Assembly (NCBI GenBank): GCA_964202905.1
Contig: CAXNJO010000001.1
Span: 640,001 to 704,000, forward strand
Direction of reading: 5' to 3'
Origin: Polyangiales bacterium
GTDB lineage: Bacteria; Myxococcota_A; Polyangia; Polyangiales; JADJQN01
Length of the DNA: 64,000 nt
Part shown: piece after piece, positions 5,331 to 64,000 of the stretch
Layout of the letters: every line of letters starts with the position of its first letter
Numbering within the stretch: position 1 is the first letter of the stretch
Program-made: the position numbers and the translations under genes
The notes under the pieces: generated by a model
What the model saw: only the letters and a program-made list of their open reading frames with translations
Told to the model about the DNA's origin: nothing
Database searches by the model: none

Positions 5331-6908
5331 TCAGCCCGCGGCGAGGTAGATGCGCAGGGTCTCGGCGGCGTCGCGTTTGTCGAAGGGTGCGCCCGCGAGC
5401 TCCGCGCGGCGCGAGACCGCGGCGAACAGCGCTTCGAGCCAGGTGTGGAGCGCCCGGCACTCGGCCGTCGCGGCCGCCATGCGCGCGCGGTCGAGCAGGT
5501 CCACGTCGCGGAGCGACTCGAGCGACGCGAGAAAGGGCTCGAGCCGCCCGTAGTCGCCGAGGCGCACGAGCTGATAGCCGATCGCGCGGAAATGCTGGAG
5601 GAAGTCGCGCACGAAGGAGAAGCTCCCTGCGCCCGCCCACCGATCGACGGACTCGAGCGACGCGCTCGCCTTCGCGTCGAACGCACGCAGCACCTGCACG
5701 AACATCCACACCTCGCGGCGCAGCCGCTCGCTCGCCGCGCGCCGCGCCTCGGCGTCGAGCGCGAGCTCGGGCGGCGGCGCCGCCGGACGCAGCTCGGCGC
5801 AGAGCACGCGCAGCGCGTGCTGGAGCGCCGCGCGCACCTGCGCCGCGACCACGATGAGTTGCGGTGCGAGCGCCGCGACCGGCAGGTCGGGCGCGGGCGG
5901 CGGCACGTCACGCTCGAAGGCTTTGCGCATCTCGACGCGCAAGGTGCTCGCGACCGTGTCGAGGACCGCGCGCAGGCGCGCGAGCCCGCGGAGCTGCGCC
6001 TCGAGCGCGTCCGCGTGCGCCGAGAGATGCGCCGCGTCGAGGGCGAGTAGCTCGTGCTCGGCGCCATCGGCGATCTGGTCCGCGGCGCGCCGCGAGAGAA
6101 AGCGCGTGAGCGCCCGCAGGTCGCTGCGCAGCACGGCGAGCAGCACGTAGGCGCGGCGCACGGACTCGCCCTCCGCGGCGCAGACCTCGACGAGCGCCAC
6201 GTAGCGGAGCGCACGCGACAACGCGAGGAAGGTGAGCGCGGCGACGCGGTGTGCGGCCTCGCTGGAGATCGCGTGCAGCGCCTCGAGCGCCTCGGGGCTG
6301 CGCAGCCGGTCGAACTCGGGCCGGAACTCGAGCGTGACGAGCGGGTCGAAGTACGCGTTGCGCCCGACCTCCCGGGTGATCGTGGCGTGCAGCGCGAGAA
6401 ACGCGCGCTCGGGCACGCGACCCGCGCGGAGCAGCCCGTCCGCGAGCTCGACGAAGTCCCCGAACGCGCTCCGCAGCGCGAGCAGCGACTCGTCGGGCGT
6501 GCCCTGCGAGAGCGGCTCCTTCACGAGCCGGCTGCGCGCCGCGTCCTCGGGCAGCGCGCCGCCGAGGGACCGCGCGAAGGTGCTCGTTTGAGTTCGTTCG
6601 CCGAGCAGCACCCGACACAGCGCGCCCGCCCGCTCGAGCGCGTCGCGCACGATGCGGAGTTCGGCGTGGTGGTCGTGCTCCGGCGGCACCGAGCGCGCGG
6701 GCGGGCCCGGGTGGTTGCGCGGATTGCCGAAGCAGACGAGCCCCTTCAGCAGCATCTCGAGCTCGAAGAGCGTCTCTTCCTTGCGCTCCGAGGAGAGCGC
6801 GTCGAACCAGCTCTCCCGCGCCCGCGCCTGCTCGCGCGGGAGCCGACGCGAGTCGCGCAGGAGGTGCGCGTGGACGTCTCGCTCCGAGGTGCTCGCGGGA
6901 CGGAGCAT
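5331..6908 (-). CDS. Hypothetical all-helical cytoplasmic protein (525 aa)
   Basis: Long ORF with normal codon bias and amphipathic helices; no recognised motif. Confidence 0.75.
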   Translation of the reverse strand: MLRPASTSERDVHAHLLRDSRRLPREQARARESWFDALSSERKEETLFELEMLLKGLVCFGNPRNHPGPPARSVPPEHDHHAELRIVRDALERAGALCRVLLGERTQTSTFARSLGGALPEDAARSRLVKEPLSQGTPDESLLALRSAFGDFVELADGLLRAGRVPERAFLALHATITREVGRNAYFDPLVTLEFRPEFDRLRSPEALEALHAISSEAAHRVAALTFLALSRALRYVALVEVCAAEGESVRRAYVLLAVLRSDLRALTRFLSRRAADQIADGAEHELLALDAAHLSAHADALEAQLRGLARLRAVLDTVASTLRVEMRKAFERDVPPPAPDLPVAALAPQLIVVAAQVRAALQHALRVLCAELRPAAPPPELALDAEARRAASERLRREVWMFVQVLRAFDAKASASLESVDRWAGAGSFSFVRDFLQHFRAIGYQLVRLGDYGRLEPFLASLESLRDVDLLDRARMAAATAECRALHTWLEALFAAVSRRAELAGAPFDKRDAAETLRIYLAAG

Positions 6909-57404: not shown

Positions 57405-58471
57405 GGGGCGCTCCGCGGGCGGCGTGGGCCCTCTTGCGTCTGCGCGGCCCAGCAGAAGGTGCGCAGGTGCGGGTTCTCGGCGCTCACCTCGATCGCGACG
57501 TCGCCGCGCGTGCCGGGCTGCGTGGCCGTCGTGACCTCCATGCGCTTCCAGCCGTCGAGATCGCGGTGCGTCATGCGCCCCGCGACGCGCCCATCGACCT
57601 TCACGACGACGTCGATCGGGCCGTGTTCGCCCATGCGCTCGTGCTCCGAATACGGGCCTCCGTAGAGGACGAGGCGCGTGCCGAGCGGCACGTCGCGGAA
57701 CGTCGCGCGGATGGGCTCGCGGCCCTGCGGGTGCTGATACACGCAGTGACGCGCTTCGAGCGCGAGGTCCTCCTGCACGGTCGCCGCGACCCAGAGCCAC
57801 GGCCGCCGCGGATCGCAGACGAAGCGCTCCGCCGGCGTCGCCGCGCCGCCGCCGAGCCCACCCGCCTGCACGACACCGCCACGCCAGGGGCAGGGCAGCG
57901 CGGCCTCGCTCTCGACGCGCTCGACCACGGCCTCGCGGACGTGGGCGACGAGGTCGTGTCGCACGGGGGAGGCGCCGAGATCCCAGCGCAGCACGCGGAC
58001 CCGCCCGAAAACCCTTTGAAAATCGGGCTCTCTCGCGGGTGCTCCGCGCGGGCGCTCGCCGCGGATCGAGAGCGCCCACAGCCGCGTGAAGGCGTCCGTG
58101 TCGCTGTGCCCCGCCTGCGCGAGCGTGATGCGGTCGCCGAGCACGAGGCGCAGCAGCGGATCCGTCCATGCGGGCGCCGACACCACGAGATCACCCGGCT
58201 GCTCCGCGCGCCGCACGAAGTCGGCCGCGGCGCGCCAGTCCTCGAGCGGCGGGACGCGTGACACCGTGAGCGTGAGCGAGGTGAGCTCGACGGCCGCGAG
58301 CAGCGGCAGGAGCAGCCAATAGTGTTTGAGCCGCGCGCGCCACACGCCCGCGCGCGAGGCCTCTTCCGGCGTGACGGGCCGCGAGCGTGGCGGCGTGTCC
58401 GGTCCGGGGGCGCGCGCAGCGGTGGGCGCCGTGCTCGGCGATGCGCCCGGGGTCGTCGGGTCGGTGGTCAC
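57401..58471 (-). CDS. Hypothetical membrane-anchored protein, coupled to the GT-C gene
   Basis: One N-terminal TM helix, then WRAAADFV...GDLVV and a beta-rich domain; stop overlaps the GT-C ATG (ATGA). Confidence 0.7.
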   Translation of the reverse strand: MTTDPTTPGASPSTAPTAARAPGPDTPPRSRPVTPEEASRAGVWRARLKHYWLLLPLLAAVELTSLTLTVSRVPPLEDWRAAADFVRRAEQPGDLVVSAPAWTDPLLRLVLGDRITLAQAGHSDTDAFTRLWALSIRGERPRGAPAREPDFQRVFGRVRVLRWDLGASPVRHDLVAHVREAVVERVESEAALPCPWRGGVVQAGGLGGGAATPAERFVCDPRRPWLWVAATVQEDLALEARHCVYQHPQGREPIRATFRDVPLGTRLVLYGGPYSEHERMGEHGPIDVVVKVDGRVAGRMTHRDLDGWKRMEVTTATQPGTRGDVAIEVSAENPHLRTFCWAAQTQEGPRRPRSAP

Positions 58472-58565
58472 GCGGACGGGCGATGGTAGAGGCGCGCTCC
58501 GCGCTGTCAAACGCGCGGCGCGGCTCTCTTGCCGCGCGCGACGGCGGGCGGCTACGATGGCCGAG

Positions 58566-59891
58566 ATGCACTTTCTTTCGTCGCTACGCCGGGATCCGTC
58601 CGCTTGCCTCGCGCGCTCGCTGCTGGCCGGGTCGCTGCTCGCCGGTTCCTTCGGGCTCGGGGCCTGCGGCGACGACGACACGCGCCCCCCGGCGCCGCCC
58701 CCACGCGACATGGACATCACGTTCGACGCCGGTGACGGGGGCATGCTGGACGGGGACGTCGGCGACGCGGGCGGCGGCGACGGCGGCACGGTGGCGGACG
58801 GCGGCACGGGCGCCTGCCGCGTCGAGGGCGACATCCTCACGCTCGCGACGGATGTCGTCGATCGGAGCGTGCGCGCCCCGGACGTCGCGGTGAGCGGCTC
58901 GACCTTCGCGATCGTGTGGACCGACGCGCGCAGCGGCGTCGCGGACGCGTTCGTGTACGCGTGGCCGGCCGCGGCCGCGTCGGGCACCGAGGTGCGCCTG
59001 ACCGACGACTTCTCGCCGACGCGCGACGTGCGCATCGCAGGACGCACGGATGGCTTCGCGGTGGGCTGGATCGACAACAGCCTCGGCTCGTTCGAGTTGC
59101 TCGCGCGGTCGCTCAGCGCGGAGGGCGCGATCGACGACCCGATCCAGCGGATCACCAACAACATGCAGCGCGAGGACTCGCCCTCGCTCGCGCAGCTCGC
59201 CGATGGCTCGGCGATGGTGGCCTGGCTCGAGTCCGACGGACTCGGCAGCCCGGCGACGTCGCGTGCGGTGCCGCTCGACGTCGTGGCCCGCGCGGTCGGG
59301 ACCCCGGCCATGCCCGTCGTGCCCCCGAGCCTGCCTGCGGATCCGCGGCTCGGGCGCCTCGGAGACGGTGCGGCGCTCGGCTGGACGGAAGCCGGCACCG
59401 TGTACGTCCAGCCGCTCACGCCGACGGGCGCGGCCCGCGGTGCGGCGACGACGATCAACACCGAGGGGAACGCGAGCACCTCGCCGTCGCTCGCGCTCGG
59501 CGACACGGGCGGCGGTGTCGCGTTCGGCGTGCTCGTCGCGGGCGCGCGCCAGGAGATCCGCATGCGCACGGTCGACGCGTCGGGGGTGCCCGATGGCCCG
59601 GAGGCCATCCTCACGCCGCCGCCGAGTCGCGGCACCGACCCCAAGATCGCCACGTTCGCCACCGGCTACGCCGTCGCGTACCGCACCAACGAGGGCAGCG
59701 GCAGCATCCGCCTCGCGTTCGCGACCGCCCTCGGTGAGTTGTCGAGCACCCTCGAGGTGGCCACCACGGCGTCGTCGCTCGGGAGCGGGCCCGGGCTCGC
59801 GGTCGCCCCGGACGGCCGCATGGTGCTCGCCTGGCTCGAGACCGACACCGTGACCGCGACCGTGCGCGCGGCGAAGGTGGTCTGCGAATGA
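58566..59891 (+). CDS. Lipoprotein with beta-propeller-like repeats
   Basis: Lipobox LGAC; repeated P-x-(V/L/I)-A...hhhW blades; start taken 7 nt after TACGAT. Confidence 0.75.
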   Translation: MHFLSSLRRDPSACLARSLLAGSLLAGSFGLGACGDDDTRPPAPPPRDMDITFDAGDGGMLDGDVGDAGGGDGGTVADGGTGACRVEGDILTLATDVVDRSVRAPDVAVSGSTFAIVWTDARSGVADAFVYAWPAAAASGTEVRLTDDFSPTRDVRIAGRTDGFAVGWIDNSLGSFELLARSLSAEGAIDDPIQRITNNMQREDSPSLAQLADGSAMVAWLESDGLGSPATSRAVPLDVVARAVGTPAMPVVPPSLPADPRLGRLGDGAALGWTEAGTVYVQPLTPTGAARGAATTINTEGNASTSPSLALGDTGGGVAFGVLVAGARQEIRMRTVDASGVPDGPEAILTPPPSRGTDPKIATFATGYAVAYRTNEGSGSIRLAFATALGELSSTLEVATTASSLGSGPGLAVAPDGRMVLAWLETDTVTATVRAAKVVCE

Positions 59892-61045
59892 CGCCGAATC
59901 GAGGCGCACTCTTGCGCGTCGCGTCGCTCGTCGTGGTCGCTCTTCTCGTCGGGGCGTGCGGCGACGACGGGCGACCGCCGACCCCACCGCCGGTGGATTT
60001 CGGCCTCGACGCATCGCGTGACGCCGGCGCATCCGACGCCGCGTCGTCCGACGGCGACGTTCCGCTGCCCGACGGCGAGCTCCTCGACGCCGCCCCACCG
60101 CCTGACGGCGAGGCGCCCGCGGACGCCGCCCCGCTGCTCGACGGCGAGGTACCCCCCGACGGCGAGGTGCCCCCCGACGCCGACGCGATCTTCGACGCGG
60201 GCGCGGAGTCCGATGGCGAGGTGCCTTTCGACGCCGATCTGTTGACCGACTTCGGCCCGCCCGGCTTGCCCGAGGGAGGGCCCCCGAGCACGTGCTTCGA
60301 CGACGGTGGCGTGTTCGACTCGTGTCGCTGCGAGCGGTTCGGTCCGGCGTGCGGCGCCTCGTCCGATCCGTCTTGCGCCGGCGGAGAGGCGTGTGTCGAC
60401 ACGGGTTGCGGCTTCGCGACCTGCCTGCCGACCGGCAGCACCTGCGTGGGCGACGCCGACTGCACGCCCGGCGCGACGTGCGTGGCGGGCAGCGGCGGGC
60501 TCGGCCGCTGCGCGCCGAGCACGCCGGATTGCGTCGACTCCCGGGATTGCCCGCTCGGCTACGCCTGCGAGCTCTCGCCCTCCGGCCGCTCTTGCGTGAA
60601 TCGCCGCATCCGCTGTGGTCCCGTGCAGCCTTGTCCGAACGGCTTCGAGTGCAGGCCCGCCGAAGGCATGGTCTTCGTCTGCGCCCCGGTGCACCGGCGG
60701 TGCAGCGACCCCGGCGCGTGTCCGGCCCGTCGCTGCCTCGACGTCGATCTCGACGGGCGAACGGAGTGCACCCACACCGGCGAATGTGTCAGCAACCTCT
60801 TGTGCGCCGACGACCTCGTGTGTGGCTTCGACCCGGACCGCGTCGCCATGGTCTGCGGACGGTTCGGTCCGTGTGAGCGCGAGTCGGACTGCGTCGCGGG
60901 CTTCACGTGCCTCGACGTCTGGGGCGATGGAATCAAGCAGTGCGAGCCCGAGGGCGGCTCCTGCGCGGCCGGTACCTGCCCCGCCCGGCAGGTCTGCGGG
61001 AGCCTCCTCTCGGGGGGGCCCCCACAGTGCCTCTCGTTTCTGTGA
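59888..61045 (+). CDS. Cys-rich repeat lipoprotein
   Basis: Lipobox VGAC; Asp/Pro-rich linker (DGEVPP repeats); about eight Cys-rich modules; ATGA overlap with the upstream gene. Confidence 0.8.
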   Translation: MTPNRGALLRVASLVVVALLVGACGDDGRPPTPPPVDFGLDASRDAGASDAASSDGDVPLPDGELLDAAPPPDGEAPADAAPLLDGEVPPDGEVPPDADAIFDAGAESDGEVPFDADLLTDFGPPGLPEGGPPSTCFDDGGVFDSCRCERFGPACGASSDPSCAGGEACVDTGCGFATCLPTGSTCVGDADCTPGATCVAGSGGLGRCAPSTPDCVDSRDCPLGYACELSPSGRSCVNRRIRCGPVQPCPNGFECRPAEGMVFVCAPVHRRCSDPGACPARRCLDVDLDGRTECTHTGECVSNLLCADDLVCGFDPDRVAMVCGRFGPCERESDCVAGFTCLDVWGDGIKQCEPEGGSCAAGTCPARQVCGSLLSGGPPQCLSFL

Positions 61046-61176: not shown

Positions 61177-64000
61177 ATGCGCACACGCTGGCTCATCCTG
61201 CTCACGCTCACGGCGACCGCACTGACCGCGTGTTCCGAAGAGGACACCCCGGGTGCGGCGTCGTCGGCGCTCGACGGTGGCGTGATCCCGCCCTGCACGG
61301 ACGGCGACGGCGACGGCTTCGGCCTCGGCTGCGCGGCGGGTCTCGACTGCGACGACGCCGACCCGTCGAGCACCAACGAGTGTCGCAATTGTGCCTCACC
61401 CGAGACGGGCTGCGCGTGCGACGGCAGCGTCCTCGAGGAGACCTGCTACCTCGACCCGGTCGACGTCGGCGGGCGCTCGATGTGCCACTCGGGCACCCGC
61501 TTCTGCCGCGACGGAGCGTGGACCTCGTGCCTCCAGCTCGAGCGCTACGAGCTCTCGGGCAACCTGGCCGGCGCGGCCAGCGCCGCGCTCGTCACGGGCC
61601 CCGTCCCCTGCAACCCCTGCAACCCGTCCTGCTACTCGACGACGGATACCCCCGGTCCGTCCGACGTGACCACCGGCGGCACCGGCGTCGTCTACACCGC
61701 CACCCCCGGCGGTGTGACGCTCCCGATGGGCGGAACCACGACCGGCACGCTGCCCGACGCGGACGGCGATGGCGTCCCCGACCTCTACGACTCGGCCCCA
61801 ACGAACCCGGCGATCACCGGCTTCGAGGGCGGCTTCTTCCACGTGCTGCCCTACGGCGGCGCCGCGGTCGATCCCCTCTACCTCATGGTGCGCGTCCGGA
61901 CGGCGGACGTGTACTTCCTCATGGACACCACCGGGTCCATGGGGGGTGAGATCGACAACCTCAAGGCGACGCTCAACACCACGATCATCCCGTCGATCCG
62001 CACGACGATCCCGGATGCGTGGTTCGGCGTCGGTCGCCACGACGACTACCCTGTCAACGGTTACGGCGCGGAGTACTACTGCGACCCTTGGGGTTGCGCC
62101 TACATCGGCGACACGGTCTATCAGAACCTGGCCAACATCACCGACACGGCGACGGGGGGCGGCGCGACGACGGTCACCAACGCGGTGAACGCGCTCTACA
62201 CGCGCTGGGGCAACGACCTGCCGGAGTCGCAGATCCCCGCGCTCTACGCGATCGCGACGGGCTCGGCGCTCGGCCCTTATCTCCCGGGTTCGACGTGCGC
62301 GGGCAGCCGCTTCGGCTACCCGTGTTTTCGCCCCGGCACCGTGCCGATCATCATCCTCTTCACGGACGCGCCCTTCCACAACGGCCCGCCCGTCACAGGA
62401 ACGGCGACGACGGGCTTCGCCACCGGCACCGCGACGAACGGCGCCGCGCTCGAGATGGGCACCGCCACGCCCGACCCGCGGGTGAACGGGACCGCCAGCG
62501 CCTCGGCCAGCGTCACGGGCACCGCTTCGCTCGACCCGCGCGAGCCTGGCACGGCCACGCCGGCCCCGCGCACGAGCGGCACGGCCACCGCCTCGCGTGA
62601 GACCGGCACCGCGACGAACTACGCGCGCACGACGGGCACCGCGACGAACCAGGTGCCGCTCACGGGCACGCCGACGGCCTTCCCGGGCACCGCGGGCACG
62701 GCGACGGCGTCGGTCACGACGGGCACCGCGACCAACTACCCGCGCATCAGCGGTCTCGCGACGGCCGAGCCGGTCGTCAACGGCACCGCGACGCTGTACG
62801 CGCGGACGACGGGCACCGCGGACAACGCGCGCGTGACGGGCACGGCGACGCAGTATGTGCGGACGACGGGCACCGCGACGAACCAGGTGCCGCTCACGGG
62901 CACGCCGACGGCCTTCCCGGGCACCGCGGGCACGGCGACGGCGTCGGTCACGACGGGCACCGCGACCAACTACCCGCGCATCAGCGGTCTCGCGACGACC
63001 GAGCCGGTCGTCAACGGCACGGCGACGCAGTACGCGCGGACGACGGGCACGGCGGACAACGCGCGCGTGACGGGCACGGCGACGCAGTATGTGCGGACGA
63101 CGGGCACCGCGACGAACCAGGTGCCGCTCACGGGCACGCCGACGGCCTTCCCGGGCACCGCGGGCACGGCGACGGCGTCCGTCACGACGGGCACCGCGAC
63201 CAACTACCCGCGCATCAGCGGTCTCGCGACCGCCGAGCCGATCGTGACGGGCACGGCGACGCAGTACGCGCGGACGACGGGCACCGCGGACAGCCCGCGC
63301 GTGACGGGCACGGCGACGCAGTACGTGAGGACGACCAGCCTCGCCTCCAACCAGCCCGTCGTCACCGGCACGCCCAGCCCGTACCCTGCCACGCTCGGCA
63401 CCGCGTCGAACTCCGTCACCACCGGCACGGCGGTCGCGTCGCCGCGCATCACGGGCATCGCCAGCAACGAGCCCCGCGTGACGGGCACGCCCACGGCCTA
63501 CCCGCGCACCTTCGGGACGGCGACGAACTCGATCCACACGGGCACGGCCTCCGCCTACCCGCGTACGACGAGCACGGCCTCGAACTACCGCGAGACGGGC
63601 ACGGCGACGGCCTATCCGCTCACGACGAGCACGGCGTCGAATCTGGTTCCCGTCGTCACCGGTACGGCGACCCTGGCCGTGGTCACCGGGACGGCGACCG
63701 CTCGATCCACTTTCGTCCGGAACGGGCTGAACGACACGTCGCCGGACTGGGCGTGGACTACCAACCAGTTCGTCGGTGACGTCATTCAGGTGTTTGCGGG
63801 TACGGGCAGGGGCGAGAACCGGGTCATCTCGTCGCACGCCGACAGGTCGTTCACGATGTCGAGCAACTGGCGGAACCGTCCAACGACGGGCAGCTTTTAT
63901 CGCGTCGTTCCGAAGGCGGCTGACGACAATCTCTACGACCTCGCCAAGGTTTGGACGACCAATCAGTTCGTCGGGTACACGGTCACGATCACGAGCGGCA
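61177..64000 (+). CDS. Giant surface lipoprotein/adhesin (3' end outside the window): Cys-rich/DxDxDG region, integrin-beta-like vWA domain, ~45 GTAT repeats, 66-aa WTTNQFVG domains
   Basis: Hand translation from ATG 61177 is open to the window end: MRTRWLILLTLTATALTAC..., DVYFLMDTTGSM, GNDLPE, ILFTDAPFH. Confidence 0.9.
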   Translation, partial: MRTRWLILLTLTATALTACSEEDTPGAASSALDGGVIPPCTDGDGDGFGLGCAAGLDCDDADPSSTNECRNCASPETGCACDGSVLEETCYLDPVDVGGRSMCHSGTRFCRDGAWTSCLQLERYELSGNLAGAASAALVTGPVPCNPCNPSCYSTTDTPGPSDVTTGGTGVVYTATPGGVTLPMGGTTTGTLPDADGDGVPDLYDSAPTNPAITGFEGGFFHVLPYGGAAVDPLYLMVRVRTADVYFLMDTTGSMGGEIDNLKATLNTTIIPSIRTTIPDAWFGVGRHDDYPVNGYGAEYYCDPWGCAYIGDTVYQNLANITDTATGGGATTVTNAVNALYTRWGNDLPESQIPALYAIATGSALGPYLPGSTCAGSRFGYPCFRPGTVPIIILFTDAPFHNGPPVTGTATTGFATGTATNGAALEMGTATPDPRVNGTASASASVTGTASLDPREPGTATPAPRTSGTATASRETGTATNYARTTGTATNQVPLTGTPTAFPGTAGTATASVTTGTATNYPRISGLATAEPVVNGTATLYARTTGTADNARVTGTATQYVRTTGTATNQVPLTGTPTAFPGTAGTATASVTTGTATNYPRISGLATTEPVVNGTATQYARTTGTADNARVTGTATQYVRTTGTATNQVPLTGTPTAFPGTAGTATASVTTGTATNYPRISGLATAEPIVTGTATQYARTTGTADSPRVTGTATQYVRTTSLASNQPVVTGTPSPYPATLGTASNSVTTGTAVASPRITGIASNEPRVTGTPTAYPRTFGTATNSIHTGTASAYPRTTSTASNYRETGTATAYPLTTSTASNLVPVVTGTATLAVVTGTATARSTFVRNGLNDTSPDWAWTTNQFVGDVIQVFAGTGRGENRVISSHADRSFTMSSNWRNRPTTGSFYRVVPKAADDNLYDLAKVWTTNQFVGYTVTITSG
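62626..63327 (+). repeat. Intragenic tandem repeat, 3 x 234 bp (78 aa = 8 GTAT units), plus a degenerate fourth copy
   Basis: AACCAGGTGCCGCTC recurs at 62647, 62881 and 63115; a variant AACCAGCCC occurs at 63349. Confidence 0.93.

Follow-up and report, generated by a model that had tools for sequence, protein, structure and literature searches.

How can a protein chain lay down some 45 copies of one short β-strand in a row and then continue with domains that lack such a strand? This question is raised by a gene at the end of a 64,000-nucleotide stretch of a Polyangiales genome (contig CAXNJO010000001.1, positions 640,001 to 704,000), which we call the window; positions marked C1 are those of the contig itself. 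A preliminary description of the window proposed that the domains are nested, each inserted after the first strand of the previous one. We followed the gene beyond the window end, compared it with its relatives and modelled the units of which it is built. The arrangement is very probably a nest formed by a single chain: 45 barrels, each inserted in the next-outer copy after the first strand, in a vWA loop of a lipoprotein.

Layout of the gene and the interrupted vWA domain

Read through with a codon model, the gene encodes about 4,150 aa; it runs past the window end and closes with a stop codon at C1:713647-9. The ORF from 61177 carries the TDAPFHNG motif of the vWA domain at aa 396-403. The frame opened there stops at aa 1399, and the repeat goes on in shifting frames up to C1:712704. 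The LTAC motif with Cys19 follows the established lipobox pattern, which we take to be a lipid anchor. The layout, the domain boundaries and the insertion site are collected in Table 1.

Table 1. Features of the gene; plain numbers are window positions and C1 numbers are contig positions beyond the window.
Feature	Position	Strand	Remark
Signal peptide with lipobox LTAC, Cys19; predicted lipid anchor	61177..61233	+	read from sequence
Cys-rich N-terminal region, common to orthologs	61294..61641	+	
TSP3-like Ca-binding motif, weak	61756..61815	+	Pfam TSP_3 E 0.025-0.048, below cut-off
vWA domain, N-terminal part, DTTGS MIDAS-like motif to TDAPFHNG	61897..62388	+	
45 stacked first strands, G-T-A-T type, one per 9-11 aa	62389..63705	+	
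Body 1, divergent sequence; with the last strand the only uninterrupted domain, predicted tip	63712..63909	+	
Body 2, start, reaching the window end	63910..64000	+	
Bodies 2-45, about 66 aa each, without first strand	C1:703910-712704	+	beyond the window
vWA domain, C-terminal part, with C-terminal domains and stop	C1:712705-713649	+	beyond the window

The strand units span aa 408-838 and are spaced by 9 (12 times), 10 (30 times) or 11 residues (twice). Their number is read as 45 ± 1, because two decisions were taken by hand: a regex match at aa 413 was dropped and a variant unit at aa 751 was added. The GTAT-type motif is observed 46 times, compared with 2.5 ± 1.6 times (maximum 10) in 2000 shuffles. 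Thr and Ser together make up 34% of the strand region and Pro 8%. When the units are numbered from the inside out, strands 14-37 are three copies of an eight-strand, 234-bp unit, a repeat found in 3.2 copies at 95%.

Downstream we count 45 bodies as well, 43 of them regex anchors and two lying inside double-length gaps, and by eye no strand motif precedes any body after body 1. Bodies 13-40 repeat a unit of eight bodies (about 1604 bp) roughly 3.5 times, with copies that are about 98-99% alike. The preliminary description, which ended at the window edge, had reported about 45 consecutive G-T-A-T units behind TDAPFHNG, a 234-bp strand repeat and a body 2 that restarts directly, and all three observations hold: no strand lies between bodies 1 and 2. 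Its forecast for the DNA downstream was equally accurate regarding some 45 strand-less bodies of about 66 aa, which the genome contains, and the return of the missing C-terminal vWA part, which is found from C1:712705 onward. The 8-body super-repeat that it expected in about three copies is also there, but it runs to about 3.5 copies, against three for the strands. Neither of the sequence features named as speaking against a nest, only a few bodies downstream or bodies with a GTAT strand of their own, appeared.

The two arrays mirror each other. At a lag of 8, near-identity extends over strands 14-37 and over bodies 13-40, and the lag profiles of strands and bodies agree with r 0.92 at the shared period of 8. 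When the similarity matrices are compared, mirror order with offset 0 gives the highest correlation among 26 mappings (r 0.49; maximum of 0.17 in 500 permutations), with a parallel mapping shifted by 5 coming near the mirror value (r 0.46). For the 12 innermost units, which lie outside the duplicated block, the mirror mapping gives r 0.35 (permutation p 0.003) and the parallel one r −0.08. N-terminal and C-terminal parts thus agree in number (45 and 45) and in mirror order, with the imperfection that the outer edges of the 8-unit blocks (strands 14-37, bodies 13-40) are off by 3-4 units.

The host of the array is most probably a vWA domain, whose two halves are both present and flank it. In Pfam the split half matches VWA_4 (E 0.002) and Integrin_beta (E 0.037) without reaching the cut-off, and the matches of the orthologs likewise fall short of it. 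The vWA part contains a DTTGS motif and a downstream Asp, as in a MIDAS; it has 146 vWA homologs, several of them labelled VWA domain-containing by their sources, and an intact homolog gave no match among PDB sequences. The C-terminal part shares 57-73% identity with the five closest orthologs. In the same-genus ortholog the vWA domain is uninterrupted and has no insert. Within the own genome, paralogs match both vWA parts at seven loci, where the two parts lie at most about 200 bases apart, and the two paralogs that we inspected have a loop of about ten residues where the array sits here. In the vWA fold the metal site (MIDAS) lies on the ligand-binding face. Since the insert begins a few residues past the probable MIDAS Asp, the rod likely rises from this face.

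The complete domain and the modelled pairing

A homology search of 1.84 billion representatives returned 2,588 matches. Phage and bacterial proteins often contain the intact domain, strand plus body, archaeal records include it too, and its copies open with a GTAT strand. Strand 1 together with body 1 aligns end to end with the intact domains of 38 relatives, and the Gly of the first strand is invariant in the resulting 39-row alignment, whose rows were chosen for having the GTAT motif. In relatives the gap between consecutive bodies is bimodal: it measures 4-10 residues without a strand motif, or at least 12 residues with one. The idea, put forward in the preliminary description, that such a domain normally begins with a GTAT strand agrees with the 38 motif-selected relatives and with the bimodal gaps. 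Its label as a β-sandwich had to be given up, as the domain models as a β-barrel of the EF-Tu domain II type.

Among solved folds the best match to a homolog model reaches Z 10.9 (rmsd 2.5 Å over 78 residues) and the best match to the model of this protein Z 7.5. The complete unit has the fold of phage baseplate and tail barrels and of EF-Tu domain II (6tba_7A, 8gtc_P, 8vjh_D, 8rk3, 9n71; also E1 FCCH), which are single domains with 8-18% identity to the unit here; the homolog model matches phage baseplate/GTA chains with Z 8.3-10.9. At the level of sequence, a single repeat unit hit no family at cut-off in Pfam, NCBIfam, PHROGs or PDB sequences. Phage_BR0599 (PF09356) reaches E 5e-10 when summed over the repeats, with no stretch significant alone, and matches 2 of 39 single domains at E 0.02; phrog_778 matches the unit weakly. 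The top clusters in the ESM Atlas are unnamed (best 0.92 and 0.87, below the recognition mark), a phage head-fibre cluster stays below 0.9, and a protein search of the genome contigs gave no match. Matches to a streptogramin acetyltransferase and a hydroxyglutarate oxidase lay far below cut-off and are taken as chance. Chains of RNA polymerase II complexes, which make up most of the Foldseek matches of the five-domain model, were rejected at TM <0.2.

The pairing of strands and bodies in nested order can be modelled at low to moderate confidence. For AlphaFold2 (AF2) we used strands 1-5 with bodies 1-5, and strands and bodies were joined in only one row of the alignment, that of a homolog. The model has a pTM of 0.55, and its bodies reach pLDDT 80-96 against 32-57 for the strands, so that in the model the bodies fold confidently without confident strands; even the contiguous strand 1, covered by 1-2 alignment rows, scores low. 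Solved single barrels superimposed on this model cover the ranges 1-378, 9/11-315/316, 18-243, 32-182 and 38/41-118/120, which amounts to five nested pairs, the ranges denoting first and last aligned residues and not contacts, and 18-243 and 32-182 coming from one row each. The GTAT region was not modelled by AF2 as a confident solenoid. A structure prediction of the innermost units, the check proposed along with the nest, thus gives the nested register, but with low confidence in the strands. In a homolog with four strands and four bodies, strand 1 reaches pLDDT 98, strand 3 about 67 and strands 2 and 4 less than 50; fold searches with that model gave no nested ranges. Finally, strands 18-21 and bodies 18-21 were predicted together as two chains; the score of 0.48, compared with 0.00 for the best of three controls, points weakly to pairing. 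Solved complexes attain the mark in 116 of 157 cases and mismatches in 2 of 215, but with scores of at most 0.60 only 18 of the 157 do so, alongside both mismatches. In these runs, which share at least 95% of the contacts, the partner has a pLDDT of 76-79, against 27 with an unrelated protein.

Nests with the same barrel and with PPC domains

Is this protein the only one with stacked strands? We found 13 runs with three or more strand-less bodies, 8 of them from one family; at least three strands stand upstream of 9 of these runs, compared with 9 of 604 single bodies. An automated count gives as many strands as bodies in 11 of 24 complete runs (rho 0.56, p 0.005); with a stricter strand rule, a PSSM counter that missed half of the canonical strands, the correlation drops to a rho of 0.18 and is not significant. 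When counted by eye, one lipoprotein family shows 9+9 (P0151), 8+8, 4+4, 4+4 and 3+3 strands and bodies, with second nests of 2+2. Two members of this family are unequal, 8+6 (P0153) and 4+3 (L261), and both have surplus strands. Unrelated proteins give 6+6 (P0019) and 8+8 (P0036), also by eye. P0158, P0056, P0098 and P0176 have about 3-5 strands for 4-5 bodies, which is less certain, and P0017, P0020 and P0156 are nested at the other end, with the last strands being stacked.

The vWA loop itself holds either no insert or a different domain in the relatives. Of 125 vWA homologs, 41 have a loop of at most 60 residues, 54 an insert of 121-200 residues, which by eye is one PPC-like domain, and eight several PPC domains, 22 having been excluded as mis-parsed by the loop parser. 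Four of the eight multi-PPC homologs stack a first strand of the P-x-x-V-x-V-x-G type in front of strand-less bodies, in the by-eye ratios 4+4 (P0256), 3+3, 2+2 and 2+2. Three others nest mid-domain and one is a plain tandem, again judged by eye. The Myxococcota vWA lipoproteins, which carry Sandaracinaceae or Polyangiales labels, share with our protein the flanking scaffold (55-73% identity in the best matches) and the same loop; they differ in having no insert or PPC (PF04151) domains, from none to four or more, and in the absence of the barrel. The barrel insert occurs in none of the 125 vWA homologs, and a search of 400 genomes from the phylum yielded no array that compares with this one. 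Since the same vWA loop holds nested PPC domains, the closest scaffold relatives have reached the same design with a different fold.

Proposed assembly, alternatives and known systems

The reading that we prefer predicts the following path. A β-barrel of about 75 aa would be present in 45 copies, each sitting just behind the first strand of the next-outer copy. The chain would leave the vWA domain as 45 first strands, form one complete tip barrel and come back as 44 bodies before the vWA domain is finished, so that each returning body would be completed by a strand taken in reverse order. The tip barrel should fold first, each later body would capture the next strand back and the vWA domain would close last. 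At the base, the lipidated Cys would anchor the protein next to the vWA and C-terminal domains. Because both ends return to one loop, a straight tandem array is impossible beyond a few units, while a nest is possible, and nesting would allow the rod to lengthen with both ends kept at the host loop. An extended strand rises by 3.3-3.5 Å per residue. As the extended strand track sets the limit, the two-track rod should measure at most 142-150 nm (430 residues × 3.3-3.5 Å). The lipobox, the vWA domain and the rod together make it somewhat more probable than other roles that the protein serves as an adhesion or spacer stalk reaching past the cell surface coat. The rod may have grown through duplications occurring in pairs, surplus strands being tolerated at an intermediate stage.

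The bodies could alternatively be complete, trimmed barrels in plain tandem, and the GTAT region a Thr-rich flexible or glycosylated tether, or a lone solenoid, which lets the chain return to the vWA domain. A composition rich in Thr, Ser and Pro is what one would expect of such a tether, the bodies are modelled well next to low-confidence strands, and more bodies would likewise demand a longer return tether. We nevertheless regard this explanation as improbable. What is repeated is the first strand of the domain itself, with the Gly invariant (in the motif-chosen rows); the units occur one per body in several families and in a second domain type, and they share a unit-level mirror similarity with the bodies. 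Additionally, the strand peptide gains confidence only with bodies in the two-chain prediction, and no confident solenoid was modelled. Strand complementation that is real, but not strictly nested in one chain, would take the form of a swapped dimer or fibre, or of a register slip between interchangeable strands. The contiguity of strand 1 with body 1 and the need for both ends to reach one vWA loop make this very unlikely, and the equal totals and the mirror signal of the inner 12 units fit a fixed intramolecular register; the shifted block boundaries (3-4 units), the unequal relatives (8+6, 4+3) and the fact that the pieces can be modelled in trans are the points in its favour.

The codon-model read-through passes 12 break sites with 14 extra bases, which raises the question of whether the depth of 45 is a product of the assembly or the gene a decayed pseudogene. 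Such an origin would suit the breaks, the high likeness of the 8-body copies, the lack of a contig across the whole array and the absence of the insert and of a similar array from the vWA homologs and the genomes of the phylum. Against it, every break consists of extra base(s) and all lie within the body array. We checked contigs from 4 of 20 runs, excluding 16 with under a fifth of the words: at L001:5245 and 5255 the extra bases are missing from the contigs of three runs, at 5388 from those of two, the fourth run not covering these sites. The three runs with the largest share of the words belong to a single study with a lake-water label, which may be the origin of the DNA. The recurrent break resembles a blend of two repeat variants, single contigs in two runs span the strand-body junction, and equal counts are unlikely to result from mis-assembly. 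We therefore take the breaks as assembly errors, with three of the 14 extra bases tested, and consider a spurious or decayed array highly improbable. A 2-base deletion at L001:3895 was seen in one contig and is absent from the contig of a second run.

With the nest of 45 barrels as the preferred reading, several questions follow. How does a stretch of about 440 residues stay unpaired during synthesis and export until its partners appear, and what keeps the expansion of two gene segments so far apart synchronised? Relatives with 8+6 and 4+3 units have the look of intermediates in such an expansion. One may also ask how a two-track rod resists force compared with tandem repeats. Nesting would be a scalable route to long rods, and the natural series of PPC domains (1-2-3-4) and barrels (3-4-8-9) provide experimental ladders and a template for designed rods. 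Proteins of this kind are easily missed, because half of the chain resembles a low-complexity linker, Pfam lacks a family for the unit and the reading frame is disrupted in assemblies.

Among known rods, chaperone-usher pili are built by donor-strand complementation, in which an incomplete β-domain is completed by a foreign strand. Their subunits are separate Ig-fold proteins and need a chaperone and an usher. In our protein, by contrast, completion is proposed to occur within one chain and in reverse order. An out-and-back chain with intertwined arms forms the stalk of over 50 nm in streptococcal antigen I/II (SpaP), which consists of an alanine-rich and a proline-rich arm with a separate V domain at the tip (PMC7732690). 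Our protein differs in that each step would be a barrel plus one strand, with a barrel at the tip and the vWA domain at the base. Judged from its sequence it is no member of the antigen I/II group, which is marked by the two arms, the V domain and an LPXTG anchor, as it has strand units and barrels, an N-terminal lipobox and no V domain at the turn.

The image of the Russian doll has been used before, for the domains of PBP4 (PMC10815838), and a survey of 2.7 million classified domains presents Si3 of cyanobacterial RNA polymerase, with six-level nesting, as a complex example (PMC13114784). Si3 is described as 150 Å long, with eight SBHMs, four of which are assembled from distant chain segments (PMC10895346). 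This solved part of the RNA polymerase β' subunit (SBHM/HABAS) is the closest parallel in that, as here, one small β-domain is recursively nested in a host loop to give an elongated structure; it has 8 domains in 6 levels, is branched and lies in the cytoplasm (PMC13114784, PMC10895346). Our protein is Si3-like in topology but does not belong to Si3/SBHM, its host being a vWA lipoprotein and its unit matching EF-Tu-II and phage-tail barrels. The preliminary description had stated that no adhesin of such scale had been described. Our literature searches brought up neither this protein nor any deeply nested surface stalk, although the ECOD survey tables may hold deeper cases; the construction principle itself has a solved precedent in Si3. 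We consider it likely that this is the deepest natural Russian-doll protein findable on record (about 140 nm, 45 self-nested barrels), and that it represents a general, unrecognised route of stalk building by paired duplications flanking a nest, which arose independently with the barrel (in several unrelated proteins, at two loops) and, inside the same vWA loop, with PPC domains. Compared with Si3, the nest would be linear, 45 levels deep, split after a single strand, about ten times longer and made of a different fold, in a secreted lipoprotein. While the principle of recursive nesting is already known, the depth of 45, the mirrored expansion and the two different domains at one site are new, and 45 levels would exceed the six-level example about sevenfold.

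Possible strain variation and neighbourhood of the gene

At position 3647 of L001, the locus that holds the nested vWA lipoprotein gene, contigs of two runs branch off into a different strand sequence, which suggests strain variation among the innermost strands. Immediately before it in the table, and sharing its strand, come two upstream genes whose products resemble lipoproteins: both have linkers rich in D, A and G, and that of the second gene is also Cys-rich. They may be co-transcribed and encode surface proteins. The source genome (G000) carries at least seven further paralogs of the vWA family, three of them in tandem on contig C3.

Coordinates of neighbouring, paralogous and barrel-containing features (G, genome; C, contig; L, locus; P, protein)
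Feature	Location
Two upstream genes	window 58326-61045
vWA paralogs, G000	C3:516000-521200; C3:462600-463700; C2:342800-343900; C2:655400-656500; C4:315700-316800
Same-family vWA ortholog L436	G014:C1:1838034-1841855
Barrel-nest lipoprotein family	L200:5224-8409; L048:735-2393; L102:5509-6954; L261:1-1056; P0151; P0153; P0004
Barrel matches in very long open frames	G329:C56:31266-37250 (8,462 aa); G497:C29:26148-29354 (6,599 aa)

The barrel in other proteins

In the tabulated lipoprotein family the barrel nests vary in depth from 3 to 9; some members carry a second, 2+2 nest (strands + bodies), members with unequal strand and body numbers are present, and two loci stand under records titled Gemmatimonadetes and Acidobacteria. 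The same barrel is nested at a second site in P0017, P0018, P0020, P0156 and P0034, where bodies lacking the last strand precede stacked P...Y-x-I last strands. As an intact insert it occurs in multiheme-cytochrome-like proteins with CxxCH motifs (L004, L005 and L006, three genomes from the same order).

The vWA loop in orthologs

In L436 the loop that houses the barrel array in the source gene has no insert, and a later vWA loop holds a long Cys-rich one. The orthologous vWA lipoproteins P0256, P0257, P0307, P0366 and P0375 have stalks of nested PPC domains, with depths of 4+4, 3+3, 2+2 and 2+2 plus one truncated protein in which five or more bodies are present and the strand is missing from the later of them. 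In P0343, P0344 and P0347 the PPC nesting point is mid-domain.
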